Shown here: positions 1-31,761 of the stretch, piece by piece
Layout of the letters: each line of letters starts with the position of its first letter
How positions within the stretch are numbered: position 1 is the first letter of the stretch
NCBI GenBank assembly: GCA_049599475.1
Contig: JBMYOQ010000042.1
Location: 1 to 36,026 of the forward strand
Reading direction: 5' to 3'
Source: Opitutales bacterium
GTDB lineage: Bacteria; Verrucomicrobiota; Verrucomicrobiia; Opitutales; JABSRG01
Length of the DNA: 36,026 nucleotides
Made by a program: the position numbers and the translations under genes
Notes under the pieces: generated by a model
What the model was told of the DNA's origin: nothing
The model's database searches: none
What the model saw: the letters and a program-made list of their open reading frames with translations, nothing else

Positions 1-297
1 ATGGTGCACTTTCACCCGCAAATTACTGGTGCATTTTAACCGCAAACCGACACACGGCATCAAAGTTAAACCAAAACTGGACTGAAACCCCATTATATCA
101 TAACAAGCTTAAAAACAGCTGCTTCAGTATGAGCTAACTCCACTACATTTGTACACCTATAAATTCGTTGGTATTGAAGGTTTGGTCTACTTCACGGCAG
201 GTAAAATACTCCTTTTCCATATAGTGACCTACACACATCCATCAAAATAACCAATACGTGCTTGATTGTCACTTGGGCTACAGACCATATTGTTGAT

Positions 298-1023
298 ATG
301 AATGCATTAAAGCTACGCCGTGAGATCAGTGCTAAATTTATGAAAGAATTTAAAGGCACCGTAAAATACGGTCCTATTAGCGGTTTTCAGTTCAGCGAAC
401 TTGCTACGAAAGATAAGCCTGATCGAACCTCAATCTTATTCGGACTATACGAGGACGAGGTTGTTTCTAGAATTGTAGAGTCATCAAAGAACTTCTCGAC
501 CTTCGCTGATATAGGAGCTGCTGAAGGTATATATGCAGTCGGACTGGTATTTAAAAAATATTTCGATAAGTCTATCTGCTTCGAAATAGAAGAGAGACTT
601 CGGAAGATCTTGGTAGAAAACAGCAAAGTAAATGAATGCACTGAGAAGGTTCAAGTAAACAGTGAGTTCAAAACTAACACCGCGAGCGATTTCGGCATTT
701 CAAAAACCGAAGACTATTTCGTTCTAGTAGACATTGAAGGAGCTGAATTTGAACTCATAGATGAAGCTTTCCTAGATCTGTTTAAGAGCAGTCAAATTCT
801 GATCGAGTTACACGACTGGATGTTTAAAGATGGTGAACAAAAAAAAGAGCGATTAATCAAAAGGCTCACGGAGTACATGGACATTGAAGTATTCACAAGC
901 CACGGGAGAAATCCGAATCAATACCCAGAGCTCAGCAAACTTAAAGACGACTACAAATGGATCGCGTGTTCAGAAGGCAGAAGACAAGCAATGGAGTGGA
1001 TTCACGCTAAGCCAAAAAGTTAG
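298..1023 (+). CDS. FkbM-like class I SAM-dependent methyltransferase (capsule modification candidate)
   Basis: Motifs LFGLYEDEV, FADIGAAEGIY (SAM-binding motif I), VLVDIEGAE and IELHD are typical of FkbM-like methyltransferases. ATG 298 preferred over TTG 262. Confidence 0.7.
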   Translation: MNALKLRREISAKFMKEFKGTVKYGPISGFQFSELATKDKPDRTSILFGLYEDEVVSRIVESSKNFSTFADIGAAEGIYAVGLVFKKYFDKSICFEIEERLRKILVENSKVNECTEKVQVNSEFKTNTASDFGISKTEDYFVLVDIEGAEFELIDEAFLDLFKSSQILIELHDWMFKDGEQKKERLIKRLTEYMDIEVFTSHGRNPNQYPELSKLKDDYKWIACSEGRRQAMEWIHAKPKS

Positions 1024-2333
1024 AGGCAGAAGATTCTTAAAACTCTTTCTGCCACAAGGCTAGGAGCCGAAAACTGACAACTCCAATCACGGCTAATAAC
1101 AGGCACTGAATATTGTTCAAGCCCCAAGACTTTCCGCTCTAGTCCACAATAATCATCAAACAACTCACACGCAGGAGTTTCTCGAGTTATCTGAGAAGCC
1201 CCGATACCACTCGAACACAAAACCGGCGTTCCTGCATCAAGCGAATCCGCCACTGTCATGGGTCCAGCATCGTCATTCGAGAATACAATACATAGATCCG
1301 CTGAATGAATTTTCTCAAAAAGCTCCTTCCCAAAAGAAGGGCCGCTAAAGTATCTAAGGATTTCATTATCCCCCCCCCACGCTCGAATCTGATTTCTCCT
1401 GGAATTATTCAATTGCCCAACCCATTCCCAGTCTAAAGAAACTCCGGATTCTTTCACTGCTCTAACTAGTCTTATAAATTCTGGAACCCCTTTTCTCTCC
1501 TGAATACTACCGATGGAAATTATCTTTCTGACCCTTGAAACCCGTTTTTCAGGGCATTTTCGCCTCCACTGAGGAAAGAATACGTTGTTAGGATTACAAT
1601 TACCAATAACATGAGCTCGCCTAATACTATATTGGCTTTCCCAAATATCCTTTTGTTTCTCTGAAACAAATGCGACGGGGACTTTCGAAAAAATTGCCTG
1701 AAATACCCGACTACGCTTAGAGCCAACCATTTTCTCGACCTGATGCGATGATTCATGGACATAGAAAAGAGATTTCTCCGGGTGACTGCTCAGGATCTTT
1801 GTCGCGGGCGAATTGACTCCGACCAAAGACGAGCCATTCACGATTATGTAATCACTTTCGTTCGAAATCAAATCGGCTTCTCGCTCAGACAAAGTGTTCA
1901 AATTATAAATACAAAACCTGTATCCGAGTTCCTCGATAAACCTCTTCAGCGTAACTATCGGGAGATTTAAACCGACAAACCCCCAAGGAGGGCCGTCAAT
2001 CATAGCTGATACAACCGGGCCCTCAACCGAAGAAGTATTCTGAAACCTACCTCGCTCTTCGCTATATAAACCTTGAAATGCAAGACACTGCTTATGCCAC
2101 GTGAGCATTTCAATTATTCCCAATAAATCATGTTTCGCCGTAAGCGAATATTGCTTACGCAATGCATAAACCGCGGAATCTACCAAGCCCTTTTCTTGCA
2201 GCAAACGAGACAGCTCACCAAAATGATCTGCATCCGTACTGGCCTTAGAATATTCTTCTATTTGTGCGATCTGATCTTCCACAAGGCCTGATTGATCAGA
2301 AAGGCTTACCAACTCTTCCGTAAATTTTAGCAT
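1020..2333 (-). CDS. Glycosyltransferase, GT-B fold (GT4-like)
   Basis: Motifs FYVHES, IISIGSIQERKG and SNDDAGPMTVADSLDAGTPVL (variant of the GT4 E-x7-E region). Last gene of the minus-strand nonulosonate operon. Confidence 0.75.
   Translation of the reverse strand: MLKFTEELVSLSDQSGLVEDQIAQIEEYSKASTDADHFGELSRLLQEKGLVDSAVYALRKQYSLTAKHDLLGIIEMLTWHKQCLAFQGLYSEERGRFQNTSSVEGPVVSAMIDGPPWGFVGLNLPIVTLKRFIEELGYRFCIYNLNTLSEREADLISNESDYIIVNGSSLVGVNSPATKILSSHPEKSLFYVHESSHQVEKMVGSKRSRVFQAIFSKVPVAFVSEKQKDIWESQYSIRRAHVIGNCNPNNVFFPQWRRKCPEKRVSRVRKIISIGSIQERKGVPEFIRLVRAVKESGVSLDWEWVGQLNNSRRNQIRAWGGDNEILRYFSGPSFGKELFEKIHSADLCIVFSNDDAGPMTVADSLDAGTPVLCSSGIGASQITRETPACELFDDYCGLERKVLGLEQYSVPVISRDWSCQFSAPSLVAERVLRIFCL
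1370..1378 (-). repeat. G9 homopolymer inside the GT4 coding strand (TGG GGG GGG GAT = W-G-G-D)
   Basis: Nine consecutive C on the + strand at 1370-1378; currently in frame. Confidence 0.9.
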
Positions 2334-2375
2334 ATCAAAATCCTAAGCTCGCCCAACAAACAGCTCGTATAACAT

Positions 2376-3566
2376 TTAGTCAGCACTATTCAACAACCAA
2401 CCCAAATTAGCTCTTGCGAAGAAAATACTACGCCCACTCTCTTTATCTCGAACATTCTCATTGTATTCATAAAGAATTCCAATTTTCCGGCCCGCAGTCT
2501 TCACGAGCGAGCTATAACCTCCATGGTTTCTGTATGCGACTTCGGACTCGCTAACACCTGAAACCAGAGGACGTGAAACAGGCCAAGTAATCCCATTATC
2601 ATAACTCATTCGAAGAGTCATATTACTCCGAGCATTCGACTTCGCAGCATTAAGGAAAATTATGCGGTGAGGCGAGCCGGAGTATTTCAAGATACTCGCC
2701 TGTGAGACCGGATCGACAAGACTTCGATGAGCATCAAAACGACTCCAATTACCTTCGAAGTCTTGTATGCTAACCATCCTCGATTTTCTAATTTTATGGC
2801 TCCCAGTAGCTCGGTCATTTCTCATAAGTCTACCATCTGAGAGCTCAACTATAGATGATTCGCTTGTCCCAGATGGCAGTTTCTCATAACTCCACGTTTT
2901 TCCACGATCATCACTAATCAAATTGCGCCCAATCGCAGGAATCACCAAGCGTCCGGCGTGCTTCCCAAGATCGAGTTGAATACCATTTCCAGGACCAACG
3001 GCATCCCAAACATAGCTATTCGGAACTAGTTTTTCGGTCAGATCTCGGGGTTTTGTCCAACCAATTCCGTTATTGTCTGACCACGCATAATATAGTCTTC
3101 GCTCGCCCCATTCGTCAATTTTTGCGTAACCGTCGTCTTCTTCAATATCGTCACGATCACCAAACTGGGCCATTTTTTCCGCGTTGCCAGACAAGAATAA
3201 AAAGAGAACTCCTGTTGATCGCTCGAGCACAACAGTAGGGTTGCCCCACGTTCCTTTTCCAGTAGAGACAACCCTCTCGACCTCTCCCCATGTGACTCCA
3301 TTATCGAATGAACGCTTCATAACGATATCAATGTCTCCAAAATCATGATGCGATTTCACTCGACCCTCACAGAGCGCAATGAGCGTTCCATCACCAGCCG
3401 TCACTAAGGCGGGAATCCGAAATGAATGATAATTTGCTTCACCTGCCGTGAACAGCTTATGAGATTTATAAAAAGGTTTTTGCTCTTTCGCCGGGTCTTC
3501 AAAACACCAACCAAACTTCGCAAACAGCGCGAAAAGCAATAATGACTTTATTACAAACCGACTCAC
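2376..3566 (-). CDS. Secreted GH33 sialidase, KDNase-like
   Basis: FRIP motif (SFRIPAL), Asp-boxes (SFDNGVTW, SDNNGIGW, SDDRGKTW, SYDNGITW), GGYSS nucleophile-Tyr motif and a hydrophobic N-terminal signal segment. GTG 3566 follows an AGGGGGA RBS-like motif; the ORF extends to TTG 3593. Confidence 0.9.
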   Translation of the reverse strand: MSRFVIKSLLLFALFAKFGWCFEDPAKEQKPFYKSHKLFTAGEANYHSFRIPALVTAGDGTLIALCEGRVKSHHDFGDIDIVMKRSFDNGVTWGEVERVVSTGKGTWGNPTVVLERSTGVLFLFLSGNAEKMAQFGDRDDIEEDDGYAKIDEWGERRLYYAWSDNNGIGWTKPRDLTEKLVPNSYVWDAVGPGNGIQLDLGKHAGRLVIPAIGRNLISDDRGKTWSYEKLPSGTSESSIVELSDGRLMRNDRATGSHKIRKSRMVSIQDFEGNWSRFDAHRSLVDPVSQASILKYSGSPHRIIFLNAAKSNARSNMTLRMSYDNGITWPVSRPLVSGVSESEVAYRNHGGYSSLVKTAGRKIGILYEYNENVRDKESGRSIFFARANLGWLLNSAD

Positions 3567-3593
3567 CCTATCCCCCTGCAGTTTGGATCTCAA

Positions 3594-4781
3594 TCATGCG
3601 TGCCAAGGCGCAAAGCTTTTATTCTGAGCCCGGAGTAGGCTATCGCAAAAATACCTAACTGCACCACGGCCTCCTTTACGAGGCACTCTAAATGCATCCA
3701 AATCATCTAGGGACTCATGAGCATCGCTCACAATCACAGGGAATCCCACGACTTTCAATACAGGCAAGTCGTTTATATCGTTTCCCATGAAAGCAATGTT
3801 CTCGATATTTATTCCTTGCTCCTTGGCCCAACGGCTTAGGGCAGACACTTTATCATCCACGCCCTGTAAACAGTCGATTTTCAGCTTTTTGGCCCGTGCA
3901 CTAACAACTGGATTGCGTTCCGTTGAGATCACCGCCATCGCCAAGTCGGTATGTTTTTTGAGTAAGCCGATGCCCATCCCGTCCCCGCGATCGCAGGTGA
4001 CGCTCTCTACTCCTTTTTCGTCTAGATGCACTTTATTATCTGTAAACACCCCATCAAAATCAAAGACAACTGCTCTAACACCATTCAAATCGAACGTTTT
4101 GGAAGTCCCTCTCTTTCGGAATAATTGCTCAACAATCGCAAAATCAGATTCGTCATCGATCTCTACAGCAGTTTCACGTGGCATTTGATAAATTGCCGTT
4201 TTCCCGAAGAAACGATGCTTATATTCTACAAAATCTTTCGTTTTAAAACAATAAACAGCGCCATTTTCGGCATACTCCGGCTCCAACTCCTGACGGCGCT
4301 TTCGAATCGCTTTGTCATGATTTACCCCGAATGCGCCCGCCCCTTCATCATATTTCCAAATGAAGGCATGACTAGAGGTAACCGACAAAGCTGAGTCAGC
4401 TTGGGTTCGTTTCATCTCTGATAAAAGCCCGTCGATATCAGACGCTGATGTCAGCGGAGATGTACATTGGAGAAAAACTACAAATTCCGGCACAACACCA
4501 TCACCACCTAAGACCTCCAATGCATGTAATATTGCAGATTCCGAGCTCGCGGTATCTGAGGCCAATTCTGACGGCCGTTCGATAACCTCGGCGCCATACT
4601 CCTCGGATACAATGCGAATCTCTTGATCATCCGTGGATACGTAAACAGCATCAACACCTTCTGCCTCTTTCGCAGCACTGATAGTATGAGCTATCATGGG
4701 ACGTCCACCGACCTCGCGGACATTCTTACGCGGTATTCCTTTGGATCCTCCTCGAGCAGGGATAATGGCTACAGTTTTCAT
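3594..4781 (-). CDS. neuA: CMP-nonulosonic acid synthetase (acylneuraminate cytidylyltransferase) fused to a KdsC/YrbI-type HAD phosphatase
   Basis: N-domain: IIPARGGSKGIPRKN, VSTDD, LQCTSP, RRQ, ENGAVY, EIDDESD. C-domain HAD: FDFDGVFTD, ISTE, QGVDDK, MGNDINDL, GGRGAVR. Confidence 0.9.
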   Translation of the reverse strand: MKTVAIIPARGGSKGIPRKNVREVGGRPMIAHTISAAKEAEGVDAVYVSTDDQEIRIVSEEYGAEVIERPSELASDTASSESAILHALEVLGGDGVVPEFVVFLQCTSPLTSASDIDGLLSEMKRTQADSALSVTSSHAFIWKYDEGAGAFGVNHDKAIRKRRQELEPEYAENGAVYCFKTKDFVEYKHRFFGKTAIYQMPRETAVEIDDESDFAIVEQLFRKRGTSKTFDLNGVRAVVFDFDGVFTDNKVHLDEKGVESVTCDRGDGMGIGLLKKHTDLAMAVISTERNPVVSARAKKLKIDCLQGVDDKVSALSRWAKEQGINIENIAFMGNDINDLPVLKVVGFPVIVSDAHESLDDLDAFRVPRKGGRGAVRYFCDSLLRAQNKSFAPWHA

Positions 4782-4799
4782 TCTCTATTCAAAATAGGT

Positions 4800-6335
4800 T
4801 CAATCCTTTAGCAAGTTTTGGAGGAGTCTCGCTGTCTTTTCCACCGGATCCGAGGCAAAATACGGGATCTCTGGAACTATCAAACTCTCGGATTCCAAAA
4901 ATTCGCTCAATGTTTCAGAATCTACGCAAGGGTAAAACCACCCTCTCTCCACATAGGTTTTGAATATATCCTCACCGACATCATCAATAATTCCGACCGG
5001 AATTCCTTGAGCATTCGCTTCAAAGGCCACGGTAGACCAAGAGGTTAAAAGTTTTGAAGTACGAGCCAACACGATTTCGAGATCGTCAAGGCTCGCGTTT
5101 CGTACATCGAATGCGTCTAGTCCCAACTCCACCAACTGCGCCTCAACATCGTCCACTAGATGCAATGAGCGGGGATGCATCCGAATCATAAACTCGACAT
5201 CTTTCGGAAGGTTCTTCACCGCTTCGACCAAATGCTCGGGTAACAATCCTCCATCACGATGCTGAGCCACCAAATCTGGTTGGTGAATAAAAAGAATACC
5301 CTTTTCTTTATTTTCCACGACTTCTGGAAACTCCCTAGCATAGATCTCGTCCCACAAATAACCTCCAACATTAAAATCAGGCCCGCTGCCCGCAGGATAC
5401 TGAGCCCTCAACGTCTCAGTAGTAAGATCTCCCCAGCACCATATTTTGCAGGGCATCAAATCAAAACGATCCGGCTTCAATTCAAGATAGTCATTGTATA
5501 TCTGGCTGGAGTCGAGATAGCCATGTTGCACGTCAATTGACGGGACCCCAACCCTCTTACATGCAAGCGTCAAAGGCATCTTCTCTACATTGGGAAAAGA
5601 CTGAAAGAAAACAGCTTTAGGAGAATAATGCTCGATCAAAGGCTGCAATAGTCGGGCTCGATTCAATATTTTGCGAACGCGCTCAATGATAAAAAACGGA
5701 TCCAAAAACAGTTTGGGGTCATACCTAAGCACAACGTCGTTGAAATCTAAAATAGTTTTCAGAAAAGCATCCTGATCCTTGTAAACCGGCCCAGTGATCA
5801 TCGCACTCTCCTGAAGTGCATAAAAGGTAGGGCTAAAAGTATAGTTTTTGAATACAGCCTCAGGAGTCATTCGACAAAGTTTCTGAAATCGATATCGATC
5901 ACCAAAAAGCGAAACCATAGGATCCAAATACTTGTCATAGATACCCCCACCTACTTCGGCACGATAATCCTGAAACAATTGAAAAATCAAAAAATCTGGC
6001 GACTGTTCAGGGGCTTTTTGCGTATTGAACAAGAGCACATCAGGAACCGTCTCGTCACGTATCAAAGATAACTCTTCCTCGCTCCTGTCCCTCTGTTCTC
6101 GCGTCAACGATTTCACACCCGGTTGCTCCGTATCGGCTTGCTCAGCGGCAAATACAGACGAATGAGATTTCTTTTGGTATAAATACATATACCTCCGTTG
6201 GCGTGAATCAGCAACTTTGGTGTAAAAATAGAAACGAACAGCTGGCCAGACACCGACTCCGTCCAAAACGAAACGACCCACATCAAATCTCTCCTGAACA
6301 CTTCGACACAGCTTATGAATTTCTGAAGAATTCAC
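4800..6335 (-). CDS. Putative CMP-sugar-dependent GT-B glycosyltransferase (candidate sialyl/KDN transferase)
   Basis: DVQHG, P-x-KIWCWG, IRMHPR (HP motif) and TSWSTVAFEA resemble TagF-like/sialyltransferase-like capsule proteins, and the gene lies between neuB and neuA. GTG 6335 overlaps the upstream TGA (GTGA); the ORF track start is 6380. Confidence 0.55.
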   Translation of the reverse strand: MNSSEIHKLCRSVQERFDVGRFVLDGVGVWPAVRFYFYTKVADSRQRRYMYLYQKKSHSSVFAAEQADTEQPGVKSLTREQRDRSEEELSLIRDETVPDVLLFNTQKAPEQSPDFLIFQLFQDYRAEVGGGIYDKYLDPMVSLFGDRYRFQKLCRMTPEAVFKNYTFSPTFYALQESAMITGPVYKDQDAFLKTILDFNDVVLRYDPKLFLDPFFIIERVRKILNRARLLQPLIEHYSPKAVFFQSFPNVEKMPLTLACKRVGVPSIDVQHGYLDSSQIYNDYLELKPDRFDLMPCKIWCWGDLTTETLRAQYPAGSGPDFNVGGYLWDEIYAREFPEVVENKEKGILFIHQPDLVAQHRDGGLLPEHLVEAVKNLPKDVEFMIRMHPRSLHLVDDVEAQLVELGLDAFDVRNASLDDLEIVLARTSKLLTSWSTVAFEANAQGIPVGIIDDVGEDIFKTYVERGWFYPCVDSETLSEFLESESLIVPEIPYFASDPVEKTARLLQNLLKD

Positions 6336-7444
6336 TTTTCGCCCTTCATTTTGTTTCGCTTCACAAAAGCCTTCAGACAATAAACAATCTCTTCGTCAGT
6401 CAGAAATTCAGAAAGTTGCGCAACTGTGGAAACGCAGCCGGAGTCGCTACCCATTGACCTGAACTTACTTCCTAACATCTCAGTCCGCATCGGCTCGGGC
6501 AATTGCAGCACGCCCACAGCATCCATAATCGCGCGATTAGCGGGATACGCATCTCGCGAAAGCACGATTTGCTCAAGTTCTCTGCGCCCCTTAGATTCAG
6601 GCCACTTGAGGGCCTCTTTGGCCAGGCAGTATGCCTCTTCGAAACGACCAAGCGCGTTCAAGCGCTTTGTCCCCATTCTCAATACAAAAGAATCTGAAAT
6701 CTCGCCAGCTTCGGGATGAGAGGATTTGATTTCATCTATATAATCCGCGATCGCTTTGCTATTTTTAAGAGCCAGATTCTCGCAAGCAAAGAATCTATTG
6801 AGGGCAAAGAATACCGCTTCATCAGCATTCAAAAAATAGGGAGATCCAGGGAGTATATGCCACTGGTCACCGAGCAAAGCTTCAACAGTGAAGGCTGAAT
6901 CATAACTCAATCCATCCAATTTGGTAGGAATAGGAATCGTGAAACCACTAAAACCATTGCCAAACCCCGCCTCATATACATCGACTCGGAACTGATCAGC
7001 ACGAGTCGCCGCCAGAACACGATCATCAATCTTTAGCCGCACATCTAAAGGCTCTGCGGAAGTTAGATCGAGAACACTGACCCACCCTCGAAAACTACCG
7101 CGCACAATGCGCTCCAACTTGCCCTTAAAACGCAAATCTGTCGCAGACGTGCTCATTAAAACTGGCTCAACGTTCCTTTCTCCGAAAGGGCAAATATGTT
7201 TCGCACCGACTTTTGAAGAAGCTGGCCAGCCTGAAGGCAGCTCCAGCCTAAACTTCACTTTCTTGATTCCAAAACCAAGCCCCTTTTCTCGGAAAGAACC
7301 ATCTTGTTCTAGGGACAAACTACGGTCGGGAGTCCCTTCGACACATATATCCAACCTCCCTCGTCCATTAAACGTAAGAAACCAACCGGCAATCTCTCTA
7401 TACCCAGATTGCCGAATATTACCAAAGGCTGGTAAAATACTCAT
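6332..7444 (-). CDS. Hypothetical protein with a beta-rich module of the kind seen on polysaccharide glycosyltransferases
   Basis: 370-aa ORF inside the operon. The segment FRGWV...VRLKIDDRVLAATRADQFRVDVYEAGFGNGFSGFTIPIP resembles accessory domains of capsule GTs. Confidence 0.55.
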   Translation of the reverse strand: MSILPAFGNIRQSGYREIAGWFLTFNGRGRLDICVEGTPDRSLSLEQDGSFREKGLGFGIKKVKFRLELPSGWPASSKVGAKHICPFGERNVEPVLMSTSATDLRFKGKLERIVRGSFRGWVSVLDLTSAEPLDVRLKIDDRVLAATRADQFRVDVYEAGFGNGFSGFTIPIPTKLDGLSYDSAFTVEALLGDQWHILPGSPYFLNADEAVFFALNRFFACENLALKNSKAIADYIDEIKSSHPEAGEISDSFVLRMGTKRLNALGRFEEAYCLAKEALKWPESKGRRELEQIVLSRDAYPANRAIMDAVGVLQLPEPMRTEMLGSKFRSMGSDSGCVSTVAQLSEFLTDEEIVYCLKAFVKRNKMKGEK

Positions 7445-7467
7445 TAAGGGGAGATGAGAAACAGATC

Positions 7468-8346
7468 TTACGCCAATTGACTGGAGTCTAACCTTTTGAG
7501 CTTTTTGCGCTGAACATCCTCTACATCCAAAATCTCTTTAGCTTTGTAGTTGAGAGACTTATGCACATTTCGTAGGTCGCGAGCTAATCGGCGCAACCCA
7601 TCGGGCTCCAAGCTAGCAGAGTGATCCGTGCCTTTCCAGGTCCGATCCAAAGTGAAGTGGCGCTCATTCCATATCGCCCCCAGAGCAAGTGCTCCGATAT
7701 CTGCAGCAATACCAAGATGGTGACCTGAGAAACCAATCGACTTTACTCGCGATTCGAAAGACTTCCGGAGACGCGTGATTTCATACAAACAAATGTCTTC
7801 AAATGCCACAGGATAACCCGAGGTGCACGCGTAGATGACCAAATTCTTAGCCTTTCCTCGGCTCTCAAAGAAAGAAACTATCTGCTCTTCCTCCGCCTGG
7901 CTAGTCATCCCGAAACTCAAATGAATTTCCCCTTCATAGCTATCGGCGAGCCATCCAAGCATAGTGAAATTCAAATTACAGGCACTCGGAATCTTAATCA
8001 ATTCGGGGTTCAGTGAAGCAATTTCCTTGGCTGATGTGAGATCCCAAACCGAAGTGCTGTAGATCACACCCCACTCCTCACATGCCTCTTTCAGGCGCCT
8101 GTGTTGCTCTACATTGAATTCGAGAAACTCTCGGTGTGCACCATAGGTATCACCATATGAATTAGCAGGATTGGGATGAGGGGCATTGTACTCTTCTTCT
8201 GTCAAAAGCTCGCGCGAGTTGCGCTTTTGAAATTTCACAACGTCCACTTTGCAGAACTGCGCAGCAACTTTGATCATTTCTATAGCCGTATCGAGATCTC
8301 CCCGGTGATTACAGCCTACTTCAGCAATAAGTTTCGGTTTTTCCAT
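7468..8346 (-). CDS. neuB: NeuB-family nonulosonate (sialic acid/KDN-9-phosphate) synthase, short form
   Basis: IAEVGCNHRGD, VKFQKR, STSVWD, IKIPSA, CTSGYP, GFSGH, ERHFTLDR, KGTDHSASLEP. About 292 aa from ATG 8346, with no C-terminal antifreeze-like (SAF) domain. Confidence 0.9.
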   Translation of the reverse strand: MEKPKLIAEVGCNHRGDLDTAIEMIKVAAQFCKVDVVKFQKRNSRELLTEEEYNAPHPNPANSYGDTYGAHREFLEFNVEQHRRLKEACEEWGVIYSTSVWDLTSAKEIASLNPELIKIPSACNLNFTMLGWLADSYEGEIHLSFGMTSQAEEEQIVSFFESRGKAKNLVIYACTSGYPVAFEDICLYEITRLRKSFESRVKSIGFSGHHLGIAADIGALALGAIWNERHFTLDRTWKGTDHSASLEPDGLRRLARDLRNVHKSLNYKAKEILDVEDVQRKKLKRLDSSQLA

Positions 8347-8396
8347 AAGCAATAGACAATGCCTCACCAACTCTCTGTAAAGGGCAAACCGAAATA

Positions 8397-8424
8397 TTGA
8401 CCCAAAGCCGCAGAGCTCTACTTT
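8397..8424 (+). promoter_or_regulatory. Putative sigma70-type promoter for the GT2/GT4-sulfotransferase pair
   Basis: TTGACC-N16-TACTTT in the divergent intergenic gap, ending 12 nt before ATG 8437. Confidence 0.4.
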
Positions 8425-8436
8425 AACGGGTTTTTC

Positions 8437-10548
8437 ATGTTTCTTCGCAAACTCATAGGATATTCTAAAAAGGCAAAATCTCTCCCTCCTGCAGTGGAAA
8501 GAGTCAGCATCATTGTCCCCGTCTACAATGCCCTAGAAGAAACCGAAAAGTGCATAGAATCGTTGATCAAACACACTGATCCTCGCGTCAAAATTGTTAT
8601 CGCGAACGACGCGAGCCCAGACCCCCGAGTATGCCGCCGGCTGCAGGAGATAAAGGAACACTCACCCAATATTCATCTTATACAGCGCACACGTAACTTA
8701 GGCTACACTCGAAATGTAAACGCGGCAATTGAATCCGTAGACGAGGACTTCGTTCTCCTCAACAGCGACACTCAAGTGTTCTCCGGTTGGCTTGAAAACC
8801 TCCTAGCCCCTCTCCTCTCATCAAAACATAACAGTCTCGATATAGGCACGATCACAGCCCTATCAAATGCGGCAGGGGCGTTCTCAATCCCTATCAACAA
8901 TCAAGTAAACGAACGGCTACACGAGACCGACTGGGACGATTGGGCATACTTGCTAGCGTCCGCTCAAATCGCAGCGTCCCCGCCAGTACCCACAGGAAAT
9001 GGATTCTGCCTATACATCAGCCGGAAGTGCTGGAATACCGTCGGACAATTCGATGAAGAATTGTTTCCACGAGGATATGGGGAGGAAAACGACTTTTGCC
9101 AAAGAGCCGTAAAAGCAGGGTTCTCAAATTTTATCGCTCAGAAGTGTTTCGTCTTCCACGCACGCTCAAAGTCTTTCGGAGACACCAAAGCACCTCTCCT
9201 CGAGCAAGGGTCTCAGGCGGTAAGAAAACGCCATCCAAACTATAAGAAGGATATTACCCATTGGCTCGGTGATGATCCAGTCGACGAAACACGCGATCGA
9301 TTTAAGAAAAACCTGAAGCTACTCACAGACATCAGAAGCAAAGATAAGAAACTCAAAATCTTATTAATCATCCATTCAGGCGGAGGAGGTACCAAACATA
9401 CAAATGAAGATTTGGTGGAAATGCTCAACAAACGACACAACGCTTCTGTGTTAGTGACTGATAAATCTAAATGGATTCTTCATAGCCCTAATCACGAAAC
9501 CGAAGAATTTTCTTTTAACATTGAGTGGAAAATTCATAGAAAGCCCAACGGAGAGCGACTCAGGGCCCTTCGGAACATTATTGCAAAATTCCGTCCAGAC
9601 TTAGTCCACTTCAGGCACTTTTTCGGGAACACACCAGAATTCATCCGAGAGATAAAGAAATCACGCATCCCTGTTATTTTCTCATTCCACGACTTTGCCA
9701 CCGTATGCCCGACGATCCAGCTAGTTAATGAATCAGGCAAGCCATGCAGGGGAGAATGTAATACACAGGCTGGGGACTGCCTCACATCCATAACCTGGAT
9801 TGATCAAGGCTTAAGAATAAAACATGACTTCGTAAATCGATGGCGAGAACGTGTCCGTAAGAACCTCATTCTTTGTGATGCTTTCGTAGTTACATCGCCC
9901 AGCACTCGAAACATCGTAACACGCAACTTTCCGGAACTTCCAACGTGGAAATTTACAGTCATTCCTCATGGCCGAAAAATTTCTCCCCCACGAGAGCTTC
10001 CAATTAAGATTACATCTGGAAGCAGTAAACCTCGCATACTTTTTTTCGGAGCCTTAGGTCACAATAAAGGCCTTCAGGTTTTCTTGGAGATAGCCAACCT
10101 AAATCGTCTCAACGATTTCCCTTTCGAGCTACACACCCTAGGAGCCTCCAATTTCACACAGGACCTGACACCCCTAAAGATAACGCAACACGGCGCATAC
10201 AAACGCGATGAATGCATAGACAAGATCACAGAAATAGGGCCTATCCTCACACTAATTCCATCAAATTGGCACGAGACATATTGCCATACTCTCACTGAAT
10301 CTTGGGCTGCAGGAGTGCCTGCACTTGTCTCCGACTTAGGAGCTCTAGGTGAACGCATGCGTCGCTACAATGCGGGGCTTGCACTCCCCTACGATCAGGC
10401 TTCCAAATGGTATGAGAGCATAATCTACTGCATAGACAATCCATCTCACCTACAGCAAATCACAAAGAATATTCAACGAACGCCCAGTATTTCCGTATTA
10501 GACATGTGTACCGAGTACGAAAAAGTCTACACGCGGTGCATTCTATAA
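8437..10548 (+). CDS. Bifunctional glycosyltransferase (GT2 N-domain + GT4-like C-domain)
   Basis: N-domain: VSIIVPVYN, NDASPD, NLGYT, LLNSD, FPRGYGEENDFC. C-domain: GGGT, SFHDF, PHG, GHNKG, ETYCHTLTESW. Confidence 0.88.
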   Translation: MFLRKLIGYSKKAKSLPPAVERVSIIVPVYNALEETEKCIESLIKHTDPRVKIVIANDASPDPRVCRRLQEIKEHSPNIHLIQRTRNLGYTRNVNAAIESVDEDFVLLNSDTQVFSGWLENLLAPLLSSKHNSLDIGTITALSNAAGAFSIPINNQVNERLHETDWDDWAYLLASAQIAASPPVPTGNGFCLYISRKCWNTVGQFDEELFPRGYGEENDFCQRAVKAGFSNFIAQKCFVFHARSKSFGDTKAPLLEQGSQAVRKRHPNYKKDITHWLGDDPVDETRDRFKKNLKLLTDIRSKDKKLKILLIIHSGGGGTKHTNEDLVEMLNKRHNASVLVTDKSKWILHSPNHETEEFSFNIEWKIHRKPNGERLRALRNIIAKFRPDLVHFRHFFGNTPEFIREIKKSRIPVIFSFHDFATVCPTIQLVNESGKPCRGECNTQAGDCLTSITWIDQGLRIKHDFVNRWRERVRKNLILCDAFVVTSPSTRNIVTRNFPELPTWKFTVIPHGRKISPPRELPIKITSGSSKPRILFFGALGHNKGLQVFLEIANLNRLNDFPFELHTLGASNFTQDLTPLKITQHGAYKRDECIDKITEIGPILTLIPSNWHETYCHTLTESWAAGVPALVSDLGALGERMRRYNAGLALPYDQASKWYESIIYCIDNPSHLQQITKNIQRTPSISVLDMCTEYEKVYTRCIL

Positions 10549-10561
10549 ATCTTAACCATTG

Positions 10562-11383
10562 ATGACCAAACTCCCTGACTTTCTTTGTATAGGCGCCCAA
10601 AAATCCGGGACTACCTGGCTGCACAACATGCTAAAGCAGCACCCTCAGATTTTCCTCCCAAAAACCAAGGAGTTAATGTTCTTCGACGTAAAAAGAAACT
10701 TTGAATCCGAGGGTCTAGATGGGTATTCAAGAAATTTCGCCGAAGCCGCTCCTGGCCAATTGATTGGAGAAATTACCCCAGGCTATCTTTGGACCGCAAC
10801 ACAGAGAAACGTACGGTCAAAAAACGAGAACGCTCTCTTTAGACGCAGAACACCTGAACGTGTTGCTGAGACTCTTGGCATGGGCACTAAATTACTCATC
10901 ATTCTCAGAGACCCTGTAGACCGAGCAATCTCAGCGTTCTTTCATCATTTTCGAAAAGGAAGGTTCACTGAAATCGATTACCAACTTCTAAAGAAAGACC
11001 CAAATGGGATCGTCGACATGGGCCGATATGTTCGCCATATTAACCGCTGGGCAAAGCACTTTCCAAAAGAGAATTTTTACATCACGACTTACGACGAACT
11101 CTTCACCGATCCAAGCTCAGGCCTGAATCATGTTTACAAATTCCTGGGCCTCCAAGAACACTCCAAGCACAAGCGAATTCGAAGCAAGTATAACAACCCT
11201 TCGGACTATGAACTCAGAGAAGACGGCTATTGGCTGGTGTCTTGCAATGGTCTGACCGACATACCCACCGATCGTCCCGTGATACCAAACGAAGTCATCG
11301 ATTTTCTGAAAGAGAGCTACCAGCTAGACAATCATCGTCTTGCGAAGAGGTGGAAAGTAGACGTAAGCGGTTGGGCCGCTTAG
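10562..11383 (+). CDS. PAPS-dependent sulfotransferase
   Basis: 5'-PSB loop PDFLCIGAQKSGTTWL, KELMFFD, GEITPGY, and 3'-PB motif LRDPVDRAIS. Confidence 0.9.
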   Translation: MTKLPDFLCIGAQKSGTTWLHNMLKQHPQIFLPKTKELMFFDVKRNFESEGLDGYSRNFAEAAPGQLIGEITPGYLWTATQRNVRSKNENALFRRRTPERVAETLGMGTKLLIILRDPVDRAISAFFHHFRKGRFTEIDYQLLKKDPNGIVDMGRYVRHINRWAKHFPKENFYITTYDELFTDPSSGLNHVYKFLGLQEHSKHKRIRSKYNNPSDYELREDGYWLVSCNGLTDIPTDRPVIPNEVIDFLKESYQLDNHRLAKRWKVDVSGWAA

Positions 11384-11387
11384 GCCT

Positions 11388-13394
11388 TTATCCGTTAGAT
11401 CGCTTCAACAAACCCAAAATACTCTCAGCAGAGGCCTCCAAATCAAAGCCCTCGCTAACTGCTTTTGCTCTTCGCTTCAACGTCGCGAGCAACGCGTCAT
11501 TCGCTACCGTATCACAAATCGAGCGGACGATCGTATCTTCATCCTCAACATTAACACACACTGCGCTCACACCTTTTTCGAAAAACTCGATGCAGCCAGA
11601 ATTTTCGCTAACTAAGACAGCGCATCCGCAGGCAGCGGCCTCCAGAGCAGCACGCCCAAAAGCCTGAAAATAAGATAGGTCAATAAATAGGTCTGAACTC
11701 CGAAAAAGATCGGCAACTTCAACCGATCGCAAACGCCCAAGGTGTCGCCAATTCGCATAGCGACGTATTTCCCATTTGGCAATCTCATGCTCATCACAAC
11801 CGAACGTTCGAATTTCAAAATCCGAATAACTCTCGGCGAGGACCTTCAATACACGCATCGTCCCTTCCGGGTTTCGCCGAGGCGTTGAAGGCCTAATCAT
11901 AGCCACAAGAACATTTCGCTCCCCGAGTCTAATACTATCGGTATTAAAGAAAACATCTTTATCCAAACTAGGCCTCACAGTCATTGCTGTAAGGTTTACT
12001 TTCTCTTGTAGCTGTCCCTTTAGCCACCTTGTTTTCACAAAGACCAACCAGTCTCGCCCAGTATTATATGTTTCCATTGCCAAAGAATGACGCGGGTCAT
12101 TCTTTTCATAGAAATCAGGCTCGAAATCTTGAACGTAGTAGGCGCCCCGCACACTACTTGACTCAACGGCCTGATTCACAAGATCAACCGAAGTCCAAAT
12201 CGTTGCAACGACATAGTCAAAAGTACTCGCGAGTGCCAAAAACTCTTCTTCAGTCCTGTAAAAGATCAAATGATCAATTTCTTCTCCATGAAAATGCTTT
12301 TGATATAGAGGACGCTCAACTAGAGGAATCGCGACGCGCGCCATCGCGCCTAATTCATTTAATTTGCGACTTTCCTGAACGACCGACAAGACTCCCCCGC
12401 TACCGGGATGCGCCTGTAATAAATATAATACCCGAACACTCGACTTCGCTTCAAACTCCCCAGAGACAACCCCTTCGGGAAACGATCCATAAATAGATGA
12501 GACAACATCACGGGCACTAGCCAGGTGCTTATTGGACCGTAAGCGCTTCACCATTCCGGAGATCTTTTGCTTACCATGTAGCTCCTCTAGTCGTTTGCCA
12601 TTTTTATCCACCAAACGTTTTCTCCTTTCCGAGCCGAAAGACTTTGATTTGTGATGGAATAAATATGCGCGCAAAGACACGCCCAATCGATAACCACGCT
12701 TACCCGCTCGGATGCACCAATCATTTTCCTCCCCATAGCCTGATGGGAAATTGTCTTCATCCAAATAACCAATAGACTCGAAAACCTGTCGACGAAAACA
12801 AGTCATTACGCCATTTAGCAAGGGCACTCGCACAGGCTTAGTCCTCCCATATGTCTCTGTCAGTTTTTTACCAATAAATTCCGAATTCAAATCCTCAGGA
12901 TATTCATTTATACTCCAAGAACCGTCCTCATCACACAGCACGGGAACGTTCTGCCAAGATGCGGCATTAGACAAGGGACCTAGAGCGGAATACTTCTGAT
13001 TATCTTCCAAGCCCATGACAAGCGCCTGCAATGTATGCCTTACAACCACCGCATCAGAGTTCATAAGAATAACATAATCAGATCGCGATGCTCTTAGTCC
13101 TCGGTTCGCCGAAGCCGTATACCCTTGAGCTACTTCGTGCCTCAGCAGGTTAATGTATGCCCTGCCTTTAACCAGCTCAAAGAGTTTCTCAGATTCCTCC
13201 AGAATAGAGCCATCATCAACGATGATAAGTTGCCCTGCATAGTCCCAGTATTTTAGAAGCGCACCGAGACATTCCGCAAAGATATCAACCTGATTATGCA
13301 CACATACGACCACATCAACACTAGGCCTCTTCCGTGTAACTGCCTTGAGGTATAAACGGCGGCCCCTTCGCTTCCAACGATTCGGAATTAGCAT
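11388..13394 (-). CDS. Bifunctional glycosyltransferase (GT2 N-domain + WsaF-like GT4 C-domain)
   Basis: N-domain: VDVVVCVHN, VDDGS, GYTASAN, MNSD, FPSGYGEENDWC. C-domain: SGG, VATIWTS, YYVQDFEPDFY, RPSTPRR, QAFGRAALEAAACG. Confidence 0.85.
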   Translation of the reverse strand: MLIPNRWKRRGRRLYLKAVTRKRPSVDVVVCVHNQVDIFAECLGALLKYWDYAGQLIIVDDGSILEESEKLFELVKGRAYINLLRHEVAQGYTASANRGLRASRSDYVILMNSDAVVVRHTLQALVMGLEDNQKYSALGPLSNAASWQNVPVLCDEDGSWSINEYPEDLNSEFIGKKLTETYGRTKPVRVPLLNGVMTCFRRQVFESIGYLDEDNFPSGYGEENDWCIRAGKRGYRLGVSLRAYLFHHKSKSFGSERRKRLVDKNGKRLEELHGKQKISGMVKRLRSNKHLASARDVVSSIYGSFPEGVVSGEFEAKSSVRVLYLLQAHPGSGGVLSVVQESRKLNELGAMARVAIPLVERPLYQKHFHGEEIDHLIFYRTEEEFLALASTFDYVVATIWTSVDLVNQAVESSSVRGAYYVQDFEPDFYEKNDPRHSLAMETYNTGRDWLVFVKTRWLKGQLQEKVNLTAMTVRPSLDKDVFFNTDSIRLGERNVLVAMIRPSTPRRNPEGTMRVLKVLAESYSDFEIRTFGCDEHEIAKWEIRRYANWRHLGRLRSVEVADLFRSSDLFIDLSYFQAFGRAALEAAACGCAVLVSENSGCIEFFEKGVSAVCVNVEDEDTIVRSICDTVANDALLATLKRRAKAVSEGFDLEASAESILGLLKRSNG

Positions 13395-13399
13395 AGAGC

Positions 13400-14512
13400 C
13401 TAGACCATGTGATCGCGGATAGTGTCGCGCACTAATTTAATCAAGAAGAACATCAAAACCAACACAACAAATACCTGCACCGTTGCCCTTAAAGACTTCG
13501 GACTAGACGCTGCATCTGGAATATAGGGTTTGGAAATAACAGTTACAAATTTGCCTTGTTTCGCGGCTTCCAAATTCGCGGTATTCAATGAGGCAATGGC
13601 GGCGGCAAATGTATTACGGGCAATTTCTTGGTTAAGCTGCACCAGCTCGTATTCGCCATTTAGCGTGTTTACCCCTTCACCCTCTATTCCAACAAGAGCC
13701 CTGTTTTGCTCTTCTATAGAAACTTCCAAAGTAGAAATAGAATCATTCAACATTTGAATTTGTTGAGATTTAGGGTCCACAGATTCCAATAGCGTGGCTC
13801 GTTCAACTCTAAGCGATAACAGCTCCGAACGAAGCCTAGCTATCTGTTGATAAACCTGAGAAACCTCTGTACCCAAATCAAACACTCCTCGCTTCTCACG
13901 AAAAGTAACCAACTCCTCGTTGACCCGATGCAAGGCTTCTCGAGCTTTCTCGAATTCTTCCCGCGCCACACGGGTCTGTTCATTAAGTGCACGCTGACTT
14001 AGCTCATTCATCACCTCTTCAGCTTTCGTAACGGTAAAGAGCATCACTTGGTGGGAGAGCTCTGGATCAAAAGTCTCCATACTCGCCTTTAGCACACCAC
14101 TCTCCGAAGAAATTCTCGCGGCAAACAACTCATTGAAGAATTCGAAAAAATCATAATTTGATGCATCTGCCGGCAGACGCTGCAAACCTCGAAAGCCATT
14201 GCTAGAAAAGTGCTGCTTAAGGCCAAAGGCTTCCTCGGCCTGCTGCGCGAACTCGTAACTAGTAAGATATGCTGAGAGAATCCTGCCGTCTTCTGTGGAT
14301 GGCCTCTCGCCCAGTCCGAATAAGCCACTTGCGCCTCCCATCTCAGCCATCGCGCTCTGCTGATTTTTTGTTACAATCAAGGAGGCTTCGGAAGTAAACA
14401 TTTCCTGAGCTAGAAAATACTGATAAACAATTGTAATTAGTATTGGAATCGCCACGACAAATAAAAATAGCCGTGCGTTAATAAATTCAAAGATTCTAAT
14501 AAACAGGTTCAT
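13400..14512 (-). CDS. kpsE: Capsule export inner-membrane adaptor (KpsE/polysaccharide co-polymerase family)
   Basis: N- and C-terminal TM helices with a long coiled-coil periplasmic region and the VISKPYIPD motif; directly downstream of kpsT. ATG 14512 preferred. Confidence 0.85.
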   Translation of the reverse strand: MNLFIRIFEFINARLFLFVVAIPILITIVYQYFLAQEMFTSEASLIVTKNQQSAMAEMGGASGLFGLGERPSTEDGRILSAYLTSYEFAQQAEEAFGLKQHFSSNGFRGLQRLPADASNYDFFEFFNELFAARISSESGVLKASMETFDPELSHQVMLFTVTKAEEVMNELSQRALNEQTRVAREEFEKAREALHRVNEELVTFREKRGVFDLGTEVSQVYQQIARLRSELLSLRVERATLLESVDPKSQQIQMLNDSISTLEVSIEEQNRALVGIEGEGVNTLNGEYELVQLNQEIARNTFAAAIASLNTANLEAAKQGKFVTVISKPYIPDAASSPKSLRATVQVFVVLVLMFFLIKLVRDTIRDHMV

Positions 14513-14519
14513 AATAAAA

Positions 14520-16732: not shown

Positions 16733-16783
16733 AATTCCCCCACAAAAATAGGTCTTGTCAATGATTTTGAGTGGTCTCACGTT
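16733..16783. promoter_or_regulatory. Possible divergent promoters for kpsM and kpsD with overlapping -35 boxes
   Basis: TTGTCAA at 16755-16761 reads TTGTCA on + and TTGACA on -. The -10 boxes at 17-nt spacing are weak (CACGTT on +, GAATTT on -). Confidence 0.25.
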
Positions 16784-16818
16784 TGCGGGGTTTATCCGTG
16801 AACCGACGCAACTCAACC

Positions 16819-18486
16819 ATGGCACGCCCAAATTTCTCAAAAAGTTTCCTGTTCCTTATCTTCACACCACTTCTAATAGTGGGTGCGAAAGCTCAGACAT
16901 TAACCCTACAAAGAGCTGCAGAAACGGGATCCGAAAGACAGCAACTCGAAAAGATCCCGCAAGCGAACACGAATGCAGCGAGCGACTCGCGCGTATTCGG
17001 TTCCTCAATTTTTTCCGCTCCAGAGATAGACGCCTCTTCGTTTTCAACTTTCAATCCAGACTACAGAATCCAAGTAGGTGATTTGATAAGAGTGCAGATT
17101 TGGGGAGCGCTCGCATTCCAGGGAGTGTTAGCGGTGGACGCACAAGGCCATATTTTTATCCCTGAAGTCGGCCCAGTCCAAGTCTTAGGGCTTCCAAACG
17201 GTGAACTCACCGCCCGTGTCAAAGAAGCCGTATCAGAAGTCTATACTCGCAATATACAGATCTACGCTAATTTGGAGACTTCTCAGGAAGTAAGAGTGTA
17301 TGTTGCTGGTTACGTGAATACCCCTGGGTTATATGGTGGGCCCACGAGCGAAAACCTAATCAACTATTTAAAGCTCGCCGGAGGCATAGACCTTGATCGC
17401 GGGAGCTTCATAGAAATTGATGTGAAACGGGGAAACGAAACACTTCAAAGCGTGAATCTCTACGATTTCCTCACTGAGGGGTCCGTTCCACTTGTTCAAT
17501 TTGCTGATGGCGATGTAATATTCGTCCATCCCATAAAACACACGCTAAGCATAGAAGGGCTCGCCAAAAATGCCTTTCAGTTTGAATTTGAGGGAGAATT
17601 CATTGTAGGGACAGAAATCCTAAGGCTTGCACGTGTCGATCCAATCGCCACTACGGCCGTTGTAAAGCGCTCTCTGGGACCGAAGGCGTCCGTTATAAAC
17701 TTAGATATGGGCGAGGTTGAGTCCTTCGATTTTCTTCCAGGGGACCGCGTAATCTTTTCCGCAGACCGCCAAAAAGACACAGTACTCGTAAAGGTCGATG
17801 GTGAACACGACGGAGACGGCTACATTGTAATGCCCTATGGGACTACCATTGGCGATCTTTTCGAGCGCCTTGAATTCTCAACTTACTCCAATGTAGACGC
17901 CATTCAGCTTTTCCGAAAGAGTGTTCAAAAGCGCCAGAAGGATGCCATTCTGGCCTCTCTCCAGCGTTTAGAGAACAATGTCCTCTCGGCGCGCTCTAGC
18001 ACGGCGGATGAAGCGAGGTTGCGGGCGGCTGAGGCTGAGTTGCTGCTGCAGTTTGTCGATCGAGCGCGCAACGTGGAGCCCCTTGGGCAAGTCGTCTTGA
18101 ATGGAGAAAATTGGCGCAATGTGCGACTGGAAGAGGATGATCACATTGTGATTCCTGGGCTTTCCAACTTAGTCATGGTACAGGGCGAAGTGAATTTTCC
18201 CAACACCCAAGTCTTCCGCGAGGAGTCCAAACTCGAGAATTATATCGAATTTGCGGGTGGCTTCACCGAGAATGCCGAGAAGGATAAGATCATTCTCTTG
18301 CGCTCCAATGGCGAGATCAACCTAGTGAAGGAACGCTTGATAGGCTCATCTAAATATGAGCTGAATCCAGGAGACGAAGTCATTGTGCTCCCGGAAGTGG
18401 ATAAGAAATACTTCCCGCTGATCCGCGATCTATCCCAGATTATTTATAATCTGGCAATTGCGACAAAGGTCGTTCTTGACGTATAA
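16819..18486 (+). CDS. kpsD: Polysaccharide export OPX protein (KpsD-like, SLBB domains)
   Basis: FNPDYRIQVGD...IWGA...VDAQGHIFIPEVGPV (Poly_export motif), repeated SLBB motifs (GYVNTPG, LAGG, GEVNFP, FAGG), signal peptide after ATG 16819, and a KpsD-like length. Confidence 0.88.
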   Translation: MARPNFSKSFLFLIFTPLLIVGAKAQTLTLQRAAETGSERQQLEKIPQANTNAASDSRVFGSSIFSAPEIDASSFSTFNPDYRIQVGDLIRVQIWGALAFQGVLAVDAQGHIFIPEVGPVQVLGLPNGELTARVKEAVSEVYTRNIQIYANLETSQEVRVYVAGYVNTPGLYGGPTSENLINYLKLAGGIDLDRGSFIEIDVKRGNETLQSVNLYDFLTEGSVPLVQFADGDVIFVHPIKHTLSIEGLAKNAFQFEFEGEFIVGTEILRLARVDPIATTAVVKRSLGPKASVINLDMGEVESFDFLPGDRVIFSADRQKDTVLVKVDGEHDGDGYIVMPYGTTIGDLFERLEFSTYSNVDAIQLFRKSVQKRQKDAILASLQRLENNVLSARSSTADEARLRAAEAELLLQFVDRARNVEPLGQVVLNGENWRNVRLEEDDHIVIPGLSNLVMVQGEVNFPNTQVFREESKLENYIEFAGGFTENAEKDKIILLRSNGEINLVKERLIGSSKYELNPGDEVIVLPEVDKKYFPLIRDLSQIIYNLAIATKVVLDV

Positions 18487-31625: not shown

Positions 31626-31761
31626 CGGTGAGAAAGATCCTCGACTCAATGAACGAGTGAGCGACAGAGCAAGTTTCTTTTACACCTGCCCAGCTTTGAG
31701 CCCACAACTATAGGATGTCTTTTCGGAGTGATCTGTGCTAGATGCTCTCTTGGGTTTATCT

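Follow-up and report, generated by a model that had tools for sequence, protein, structure and literature searches.

The six-gene run and its surroundings

The 36,026-nucleotide stretch analyzed here (the window) comes from an Opitutales bacterium (GenBank assembly GCA_049599475.1, contig JBMYOQ010000042.1) and carries a minus-strand run of six genes, from position 8346 down to 1020, in which predicted enzymes for making and activating a nonulosonic acid, probably KDN, a sugar resembling sialic acid, stand together with a predicted exported hydrolase of family GH33. In transcriptional order the run encodes a short NeuB-type synthase, an orphan protein, a GT-B-type protein, a fusion of a NeuA-type CMP-synthetase with a HAD phosphatase (NeuA-HAD), the GH33 enzyme and a GT4-type glycosyltransferase (GT) (Table 1). 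The window is the complete contig (C42) of a 4.68-Mb assembly of 146 contigs estimated to be 96.6% complete, and the locus may therefore extend past position 1. Its polysaccharide block (1-18 kb) has 40-48% GC, compared with 48-55% GC in the rest of the window, and the sequencing runs that match the locus best are seawater and other marine metagenomes.

The original prediction had described a tightly packed run, and its open reading frames (ORFs), their order and their families were all confirmed. With the likely starts, the successive gaps are 23, -4, 18, 27 and 42 bp; the GT-B gene starts within a GTGA that overlaps the stop of the orphan, and the GH33 gene starts at a GTG preceded by a GGGGGA site resembling a ribosome-binding site. 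The GH33 gene is flanked at 27 bp by the NeuA-HAD gene and at 42 bp by the GT4 gene and is similar to its neighbors in GC content. Such spacing is operon-like, and the six genes are presumably co-transcribed. Parts of all six genes, including the orphan and positions 3130-3359 within the GH33 gene, are matched at 99% or more by contigs of three RNA libraries that belong to one study, and some of these contigs span the neuB/orphan and orphan/GT-B junctions; they do not add up to a single transcript and may stem in part from DNA carry-over. Almost no contigs of these libraries fall within 8.6-19.9 kb (the kps genes and plus-strand glycosyltransferases), but the runs were picked using positions 1000-8400, and contigs cannot show absence. 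Scans of the locus for promoters (28 against 23.7 expected by chance) and terminators (22 against 17.9) stayed at chance level, the repeat scan was chance-like, and no traces of mobile elements were seen. One base of a three-base run at position 1969, within the GT4 gene, is missing from the contigs of two RNA runs belonging to one study, which would shift the GT4 frame; the deletion is not in the DNA run compared and is either a strain variant or an error.

The placement next to kpsMTED proved partly right: the export genes share the low-GC block, but kpsMTE lies about 5 kb away in a separate transcription unit. All four export components (KpsM, T, E and D) are present in the window with family matches under the equivalog cut-offs, and the kpsM-T-E calls rest on matches to NF050053, TIGR01010 and ABC_tran plus TPR. 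The C-terminal TPR region of KpsT comprises about 250 aa, which is unusual for a capsule ABC ATPase. At the other end of the run, the FkbM-like methyltransferase is possibly a glycan modifier.

Table 1. Genes of the polysaccharide block; for the six genes of the run (first six lines) the higher coordinate is the likely start.
Feature	Position	Strand	Matches and arrangement
Short NeuB, 292 aa, without SAF domain	7468..8346	-	PF03102, 6e-67
Orphan ORF, 370 aa	6332..7444	-	no family match
GT-B-type protein, 511 aa	4800..6335	-	weak DUF6716 match
NeuA-HAD fusion	3594..4781	-	PF02348 (CTP_transf_3) and Hydrolase_3 HAD
GH33, 396 aa (P0001)	2376..3566	-	BNR_2/GH33; fungal-Kdnase clade; predicted N-terminal Sec-type signal peptide
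GT4-like glycosyltransferase	1020..2333	-	PF00534, 4.8e-6; end gene of the run
FkbM-like methyltransferase	262..1023	+	TIGR01444, 3e-6, under cut-off; convergent with GT4
GT2/GT4 fusion	8437-10548	+	divergent from neuB across a 90-bp gap
Sulfotransferase	10559-11383	+	paired with the GT2/GT4 fusion at 8437-10548
GT2/GT4 fusion	11388-13394	-	ends head-on against the plus-strand GT2/GT4 and sulfotransferase pair
kpsE	13400-14536	-	in the kpsM-T-E run
kpsT with TPR tail	14520-15914	-	ABC_tran and TPR
kpsM	15911-16711	-	in the kpsM-T-E run
kpsD-like outer-membrane polysaccharide export protein	16771..18486	+	Poly_export and SLBB; divergent from kpsM

The sugar made by the run

Family and PDB searches place a NeuB, a HAD 9-phosphatase of the C0 type and a CMP-synthetase together in the run, and several lines of evidence point to KDN as its likely product. 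Residues E288 and K299 of the HAD domain align with E56 and K67 of the KDN-9-phosphate phosphatase of Bacteroides thetaiotaomicron (3e81), a Glu/Lys pair which we take to set specificity for nine-carbon substrates; Arg occupies the Glu position in two KdsC-type structures, and the pair reads Ser/Thr in the stand-alone KdsC of this genome. The NeuA-HAD fusion scores 101 bits against NF058599 (KDN-9-phosphate phosphatase), under the cut-off of 180, and its PDB matches include 3e81 and PpNeuA (9t4z), the latter matched by the CMP-synthetase domain at 120 bits. Since a 9-phosphatase implies a product with a 9-hydroxyl, legionaminic acid (Leg) and pseudaminic acid (Pse) are excluded; both are 9-deoxy sugars and require no such enzyme. 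Synthesis of N-acetylneuraminic acid 9-phosphate (Neu5Ac-9-P) needs N-acetylmannosamine 6-phosphate (ManNAc-6-P). Neither NanE nor AGE nor NeuC was found in the 96.6% complete genome, whose sole Epimerase_2 match is a non-hydrolyzing WecB, at 311 bits compared with 61 bits for NeuC. The search for a route to ManNAc-6-P thus found none, which counts for KDN, and the KDN-9-phosphate route claimed at the outset is supported by the phosphatase signature and these genome-wide absences together. The statement that the window holds no neuC or Leg/Pse genes was also upheld, as none is among the family matches of the window ORFs: there is no Leg/Pse dehydratase, aminotransferase or PseI/LegI, and contig C1 holds a separate Pse cluster whose PseI passes the cut-off. 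Kdo synthesis was considered as the role of the run and rejected, because KdsC is encoded separately in the genome, which also has three matches to the DAHP_synth_1 family.

A search for close relatives of the NeuB gave matches in 9 of 400 genomes of the phylum and 10 of 400 of the order, which correspond to 15 distinct loci read over stretches of 7.5-19.9 kb. All 15 carry a NeuA, 12 encode a HAD domain with the Glu/Lys pair (12/12 of the HAD domains present), six have a Wzm/Wzt- or KpsM/T-like ABC gene, and Epimerase_2 has no match among 127 ORFs from nine of these loci.

The synthase itself is uninformative. It scores under the NeuB_NnaB and PseI cut-offs and belongs to a very large clade that lacks the SAF domain, whose 120 closest proteins are 71-81% identical to it; its named close relatives include Rariglobus, Opitutales and Puniceicoccaceae proteins. 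NeuBs without SAF have been described as an environmental group (PMC8208679). We predict that the enzyme is a KDN-9-phosphate synthase using mannose-6-phosphate and phosphoenolpyruvate (PEP), a substrate assignment taken from the neighboring genes and not from the synthase. The clade (P0121-P0240) includes Methanosarcina proteins at 73-75% identity, and it carries the motif KIPSACN (116/120) with Cys at the position of E134 of Neisseria meningitidis NeuB.

Two further loci of the genome may also concern ulosonic acids. Contig C10 (G000, ~65,500-89,200; L093, L094) encodes a second SAF-less NeuB, 36% identical to that of the window, accompanied by two cytidylyltransferases, one of them fused to a cupin, and by SDRs, GFO oxidoreductases, a protein resembling inositol monophosphatase and sulfotransferases; neither a HAD nor a NeuC gene was seen there. 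On contig C2 (~34,500-46,300; L097), a HAD, an HMGL-like aldolase and a cytidylyltransferase precede a Wzy locus with sulfotransferases, possibly an ulosonic-acid pathway with a non-NeuB synthase.

The GH33 enzyme resembles fungal Kdnases

The seven best PDB matches of the GH33 protein are all Kdnases of Aspergillus and Trichophyton (217-238 bits, E ~1e-69), and the next sialidase follows at 120 bits. Its predicted model (pLDDT 88.7) superposes on the Kdnases with TM 0.83-0.84 and a root-mean-square deviation (rmsd) of 2.6-2.8, compared with TM 0.77 and rmsd 5.0 for the Micromonospora sialidase 1EUR; sequence and model comparison thus agree that its six-bladed BNR propeller is closest to the Kdnases. 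By alignment, D75, R156 and Y351 correspond to the A. fumigatus residues altered in the D84A, R171L (4M4V) and Y358H structures, and R50, R69, D75, R156, E236, R249, R252, R313, Y351 and E367 are invariant in 121/121 relatives aligned. The presumed arginine triad, the Asp acid/base, and the Tyr nucleophile with its partner Glu are all kept. Also, R171 of A. fumigatus, the equivalent of R156, presumably lies in the C5 pocket, disfavors the N-acetyl group and helps to cause the preference for Kdn. The KDNase identity given in the original prediction is therefore well supported at the level of sequence and model, and we consider it very probable that the enzyme is an active KDNase.

Export is predicted as well. 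The N-terminus has a hydrophobic stretch at residues 8-16, and GWC|FEDPAK aligns with AWA|INDPAK of the A. fumigatus enzyme (hydrophobicity and alignment only); the look of a cleavable Sec signal appears in all full-length members of its subclade. The GH33 is accordingly a predicted exported exo-KDNase and the sole BNR_2 match in the genome.

The window GH33 and four metagenomic proteins 51-62% identical to it group together on a separate branch (SH-aLRT 99; quick tree, 55 rows), and subclade-specific residues include H74, beside the acid/base D75, and H348, beside the nucleophile Y351. A metagenome scan with the subclade alignment gave four loci from 349 matches. Two of these, L098 and L100, share 100% identity across 857 bp and count as one case, whereas L099 and L101 lie outside the subclade (L099 has unrelated neighbors; L101 was checked by tblastn only). 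Gene neighbors are visible for only one of the four metagenomic members (L100), where the GH33 has 55% identity to that of the window; downstream of its gene, in the same orientation, come a Sulfotransfer_2 gene and then one resembling polysialyltransferases (PF07388). Both subclade members with readable context thus lie among glycan-building genes; as two cases they are suggestive, not conclusive.

The candidate transferase

The GT-B-type protein carries the conserved motifs HG, QPD, RxHPRS and TSxSTVAFEA and is represented in the database by no more than two relatives, at 40% and 31%. Its Atlas model (pTM 0.81) resembles clusters of the Glyphos_transf, Capsule_synth and Epimerase_2 types, which serves as a lead only. 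A homologue in genome G598 (L119; 28%, E 5e-54) is encoded directly upstream of a NeuA-HAD and a NeuB. This placement fits, and does not prove, that the protein is a candidate CMP-KDN-dependent transferase. The single-sequence fold reached a pLDDT of only 33, its profile found no PDB match, and it has no detectable relation to the L100 transferase. None of 300 other phylum genomes was matched, although the G598 homologue is known nonetheless. Just after NeuB in that G598 locus (L119:10412-12403, on C1) lies a fusion of GT4 with GT29, a eukaryote-type sialyltransferase. The orphan protein preceding the GT-B in the run has no Pfam or NCBIfam match, no usable Atlas match and no paralogue in the genome.

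The pairing is rare

The original prediction presented synthesis and hydrolysis as one system. Neighborhoods were compared from both sides. None of the 15 related NeuB loci carries a GH33, and in genome-wide BNR_2 searches the nearest match lay 43 kb away; a conserved system is thus not borne out. From the other side, the best 80 of 280 related GH33 stretches from named genomes (59 of the 80 at least 19 kb long; GH33 42-49% identical) include no intact NeuB/NeuA pair. At least one of SusC (a weak marker), SusD, NanA, NanM and SSF occurs in 56 of these best 80 loci and a NanA-like gene in 25. The same pattern is seen closer to home: six genomes of the same order with a related GH33 have no NeuB nearby, four of them with a NanA-like gene, and the GH33 was not found in six other genomes of the same family. 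The search that had been proposed, for NeuB, NeuA-HAD, GH33 and kpsMT together, therefore shows the pairing to be rare (0/15 and 0/80), while the unusual, non-catabolic setting of this GH33 stands, as 25 of its best 80 relatives have a NanA-like gene nearby and this genome has none that was found.

Among the best 80 outside loci, no gene matched the biosynthetic genes of the window or those of L100, except for broken NeuB and HAD genes in Puia sp. P3 (L078). This locus was rejected as a second case, since its NeuB is frame-broken, only a HAD-like stretch remains, the identities are 28-31% and the genes lie 4-5 kb from the GH33; the GH33 heads a GntR-SusCD-NanA-NanM-SSF locus, with the broken HAD-like and NeuB-like genes upstream at 4373-5790. 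An earlier single-protein scan of named genomes gave 56 pattern matches, none of which was confirmed, and was redone with an alignment. Viral contigs gave no matches to a degenerate GH33 pattern, and a plasmid collection gave six distant matches only (30-36%).

Catabolism and uptake elsewhere in the genome

As claimed, the window holds neither nanA nor a sialic acid transporter gene. No NanA was found in the whole genome, whose sole DHDPS-family gene is DapA; with the GH33 as the only BNR_2 match, no standard KDN catabolism was found. The genome does, however, carry on contig C4 a NanM-like/SSS fusion whose best PDB match is the symporter 5nv9, which we take to be SiaT. The fusion has the SiaF architecture (PMC8461474). 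NanA and a transporter linked to the sialidase, as in a nan locus, are not what this genome shows, for NanA was not found and the transporter lies on another contig. The C4 locus (G000:C4:361-7720; L112) encodes, all on the same strand, a GFO oxidoreductase, the NanM-like/SSS fusion, a second GFO, a 643-aa protein and a third GFO, and it is possibly an aldolase-free locus for nonulosonate uptake or oxidation. The first of these oxidoreductases has only glucose-fructose oxidoreductase among its PDB matches at E <1e-8.

A proposed accessory KDNase acting on the cell's own glycan

Taken together, these results lead us to the reading that an accessory exo-KDNase edits or recycles the cell's own KDN, possibly with re-import and re-activation, to which we give a rough probability of 0.45. 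NeuB would condense mannose-6-phosphate with PEP to KDN-9-phosphate, the fused HAD domain would remove the phosphate and the NeuA domain would form CMP-KDN, from which the GT-B may add KDN to a surface polysaccharide in the cytoplasm. This recipient would most likely be built by the neighboring GT2/GT4 enzymes and exported by KpsMTED. The GH33, presumably recruited from a mostly catabolic clade and predicted to be exported by Sec, would then act on the glycan of the cell itself, taking off terminal KDN either in the periplasm or on the surface and so editing KDN caps or cleaning up mis-exported glycan. Freed KDN may re-enter through the SiaF-like transporter on C4 and be re-activated by the CMP-synthetase, with no need for an aldolase. 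The KDNase would be accessory and not required. We lean toward the cell's own glycan as the target of the enzyme; the link to Kps and the salvage step are suppositions. Of the functions originally listed, shedding and chain-length control fit poorly, as an exo-acting GH33 takes terminal residues only (its relative is an exo-sialidase; PMC5778107) and could edit caps or clear strays but not shed a heteropolymer; both functions would need a KDN homopolymer.

Several observations weigh against this reading. The absence of GH33 from all 15 related NeuB loci implies that it is dispensable, and the NanA-like gene in 25 of the 80 GH33 loci, none of them with an intact NeuB/NeuA pair, makes the clade's usual job look catabolic. 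The kps export genes are in another transcription unit than the neuB-GT4 run; KpsC/KpsS (PF05159) was not found in the genome, so that an anchor would be of another kind or off the assembly; and the genome holds further loci of the Wzm/Wzt-like and Wzy kinds. Among PDB entries, no close characterized relative of the synthase was found (best 98 bits). Identity between the C4 transporter and the SiaF-type fusion in a nan-type locus of G658 is only 33%. Finally, L100 is one 2.5-kb contig on which the transferase gene is cut off, matches PF07388 at 24.4 bits against a cut-off of 23.3, and has no NeuB in view.

The mostly catabolic clade would also suit an enzyme that frees KDN from foreign algal or bacterial glycans as a supply, with the C4 NanM-SSS protein importing it and the CMP-synthetase using it for surface display, in addition to KDN made de novo, while the cell's own coat stays untouched. 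The presence of a SiaF-like transporter where NanA was not found agrees with such a supply, as do the seawater origin of the best-matching runs and the production of KDN by haptophyte algae (PMC6200933). We nevertheless think it unlikely, for de novo synthesis is already encoded in the same run, the transporter sits on another contig among oxidoreductases, and an exported KDNase would also encounter the cell's own KDN. That the gene merely landed in a variable polysaccharide island and is functionally unrelated to the KDN genes would explain its absence from the 15 related loci and from the six other family genomes, and the low-GC block is in keeping with this. Such chance would have to have brought together a hydrolase and synthesis genes that match the same rare sugar, with operon-like spacing and intact catalytic residues; the 55%-identical relative, too, has glycan-building genes for neighbors and no mobile-element traces were seen, which makes this quite unlikely.

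The sugar could also be Neu5Ac, made as Neu5Ac-9-P, or another 9-phosphorylated nonulosonate such as a KDN epimer, with the specificity of the GH33 shifted or none. The Glu/Lys pair marks nine-carbon substrates and not KDN alone, the synthase clade is uncharacterized with Cys in place of the N. meningitidis Glu, and an epimerase could be missing from a genome that is 96.6% complete. Against this stand the lack of any NeuC, NanE or AGE found, the related loci without Epimerase_2 and the arginine equivalent to A. fumigatus R171, and since Leg and Pse, as 9-deoxy sugars, need no 9-phosphatase, we hold a different sugar to be very unlikely. GH33 includes trans-sialidases. A trans-KDNase could move KDN from the exported polymer to further acceptors of the envelope, and would do so in the periplasm, which has no CMP-KDN available; the placement of the gene among transferases in two organisms and the subclade-specific H74 and H348 would fit, but every characterized close relative is a hydrolase, and such an activity appears highly improbable. 

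More broadly, a small marine Kdnase subclade may have moved from scavenging to glycan assembly and, once the KDN coat has been exported, reshape it for the cell that made it, either in a trim-and-recycle loop (release, mutarotation, SSS import and re-activation) or as a periplasmic trans-KDNase; this wider view we regard as tentative and less likely than not.

Relation to known systems

The GH33 shares with the fungal Kdnases of A. fumigatus (2XCY/2XZI), A. terreus (7P1B) and Trichophyton rubrum (7P1Q) 37-40% identity over the whole domain, the catalytic set and, by prediction, an N-terminal signal, but it comes from a bacterium, where its gene stands amid those for KDN synthesis. In A. fumigatus, the enzyme is secreted and acts as an exo-sialidase that prefers Kdn, with an efficiency higher by about five orders of magnitude; it is required for growth on Kdn and for cell-wall integrity, and, according to the same paper, no sialic-acid synthesis pathway is known in fungi (PMC5778107). 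The synthesis genes recall the KDN-9-phosphate pathway of B. thetaiotaomicron and Prymnesium parvum, which comprises a synthase, a 9-phosphatase and a CMP-synthetase and no epimerase, and for which the formation of KDN-9-phosphate from mannose-6-phosphate was followed in P. parvum by 31P-NMR or MS (PMC6200933); in the window, the phosphatase is fused to the CMP-synthetase, the synthase lacks SAF and a hydrolase is co-encoded. The catabolic nan-type loci of Bacteroidota and same-order genomes contain the same GH33 clade, but with SusC/D, NanA, NanM and SSS transporters.

KDN capsules are known from Serratia marcescens KL1/KL2, where neuA and neuB also lie within the capsule locus and NeuB has an extra isomerase-like domain; the words sialidase, hydrolase and kpsM are absent from the main text of that report (PMC9000132). 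Other KDN-containing polysaccharides cited there are those of Klebsiella ozaenae K4 and Sinorhizobium fredii (PMC9000132). Degrading enzymes within polysaccharide loci are likewise an established idea, with AlgL, PslG, PelA and PgaB discussed by the authors who described VexL of the Burkholderiales Vi-antigen loci (PMC6003464). VexL is periplasmic and degrades the ABC-exported Vi antigen, which is exposed to the periplasm in transit, and it was called in 2018 the only degrading enzyme of an ABC-capsule locus (PMC6003464). Similar to what is predicted for the GH33, VexL is a signal-peptide enzyme that is accessory, patchy in occurrence and encoded in an ABC-capsule locus; it differs as an endo-acting PL1 lyase that cuts its capsule (PMC6003464), whereas the GH33 is of exo type, would take terminal KDN only and is not co-transcribed with the export genes. 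The original statement that no such arrangement had been described for ABC-exported capsules holds insofar as we found no Kdnase or sialidase within a nonulosonate-synthesis operon in the open-access literature (supplements and most subscription papers lay outside the search), but VexL is a precedent for the degrading enzyme (PMC6003464). The components are known, and the pairing is rare rather than systematic.

In genomes, a sialidase gene is taken as a sign of feeding or virulence, and genes for nonulosonate synthesis as a sign of coat building. If our reading is true, a bacterial sialidase-family enzyme would be dedicated to editing the nonulosonate glycan built by the same operon, an exo-acting editor of a single sugar would join the short list of degrading enzymes of ABC-capsule loci, and bacteria would have a dynamic KDN coat. 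The locus also supplies bacterial enzymes of the Kdnase clade that can be tested, points with its GT-B to a candidate family of KDN transferases and offers a way to learn what the very large SAF-less NeuB clade makes.

Other observations in the window

Two features lie outside the polysaccharide block. The gene at 29179-29814 belongs to TIGR04282/DUF2064, an arsenosugar-associated glycosyltransferase family, and lies within an xdhC/mocA run. Positions 31735-35421 encode a 1228-aa protein in which FG-GAP repeats, 11 in number, occur together with a domain resembling the InlB B-repeat.

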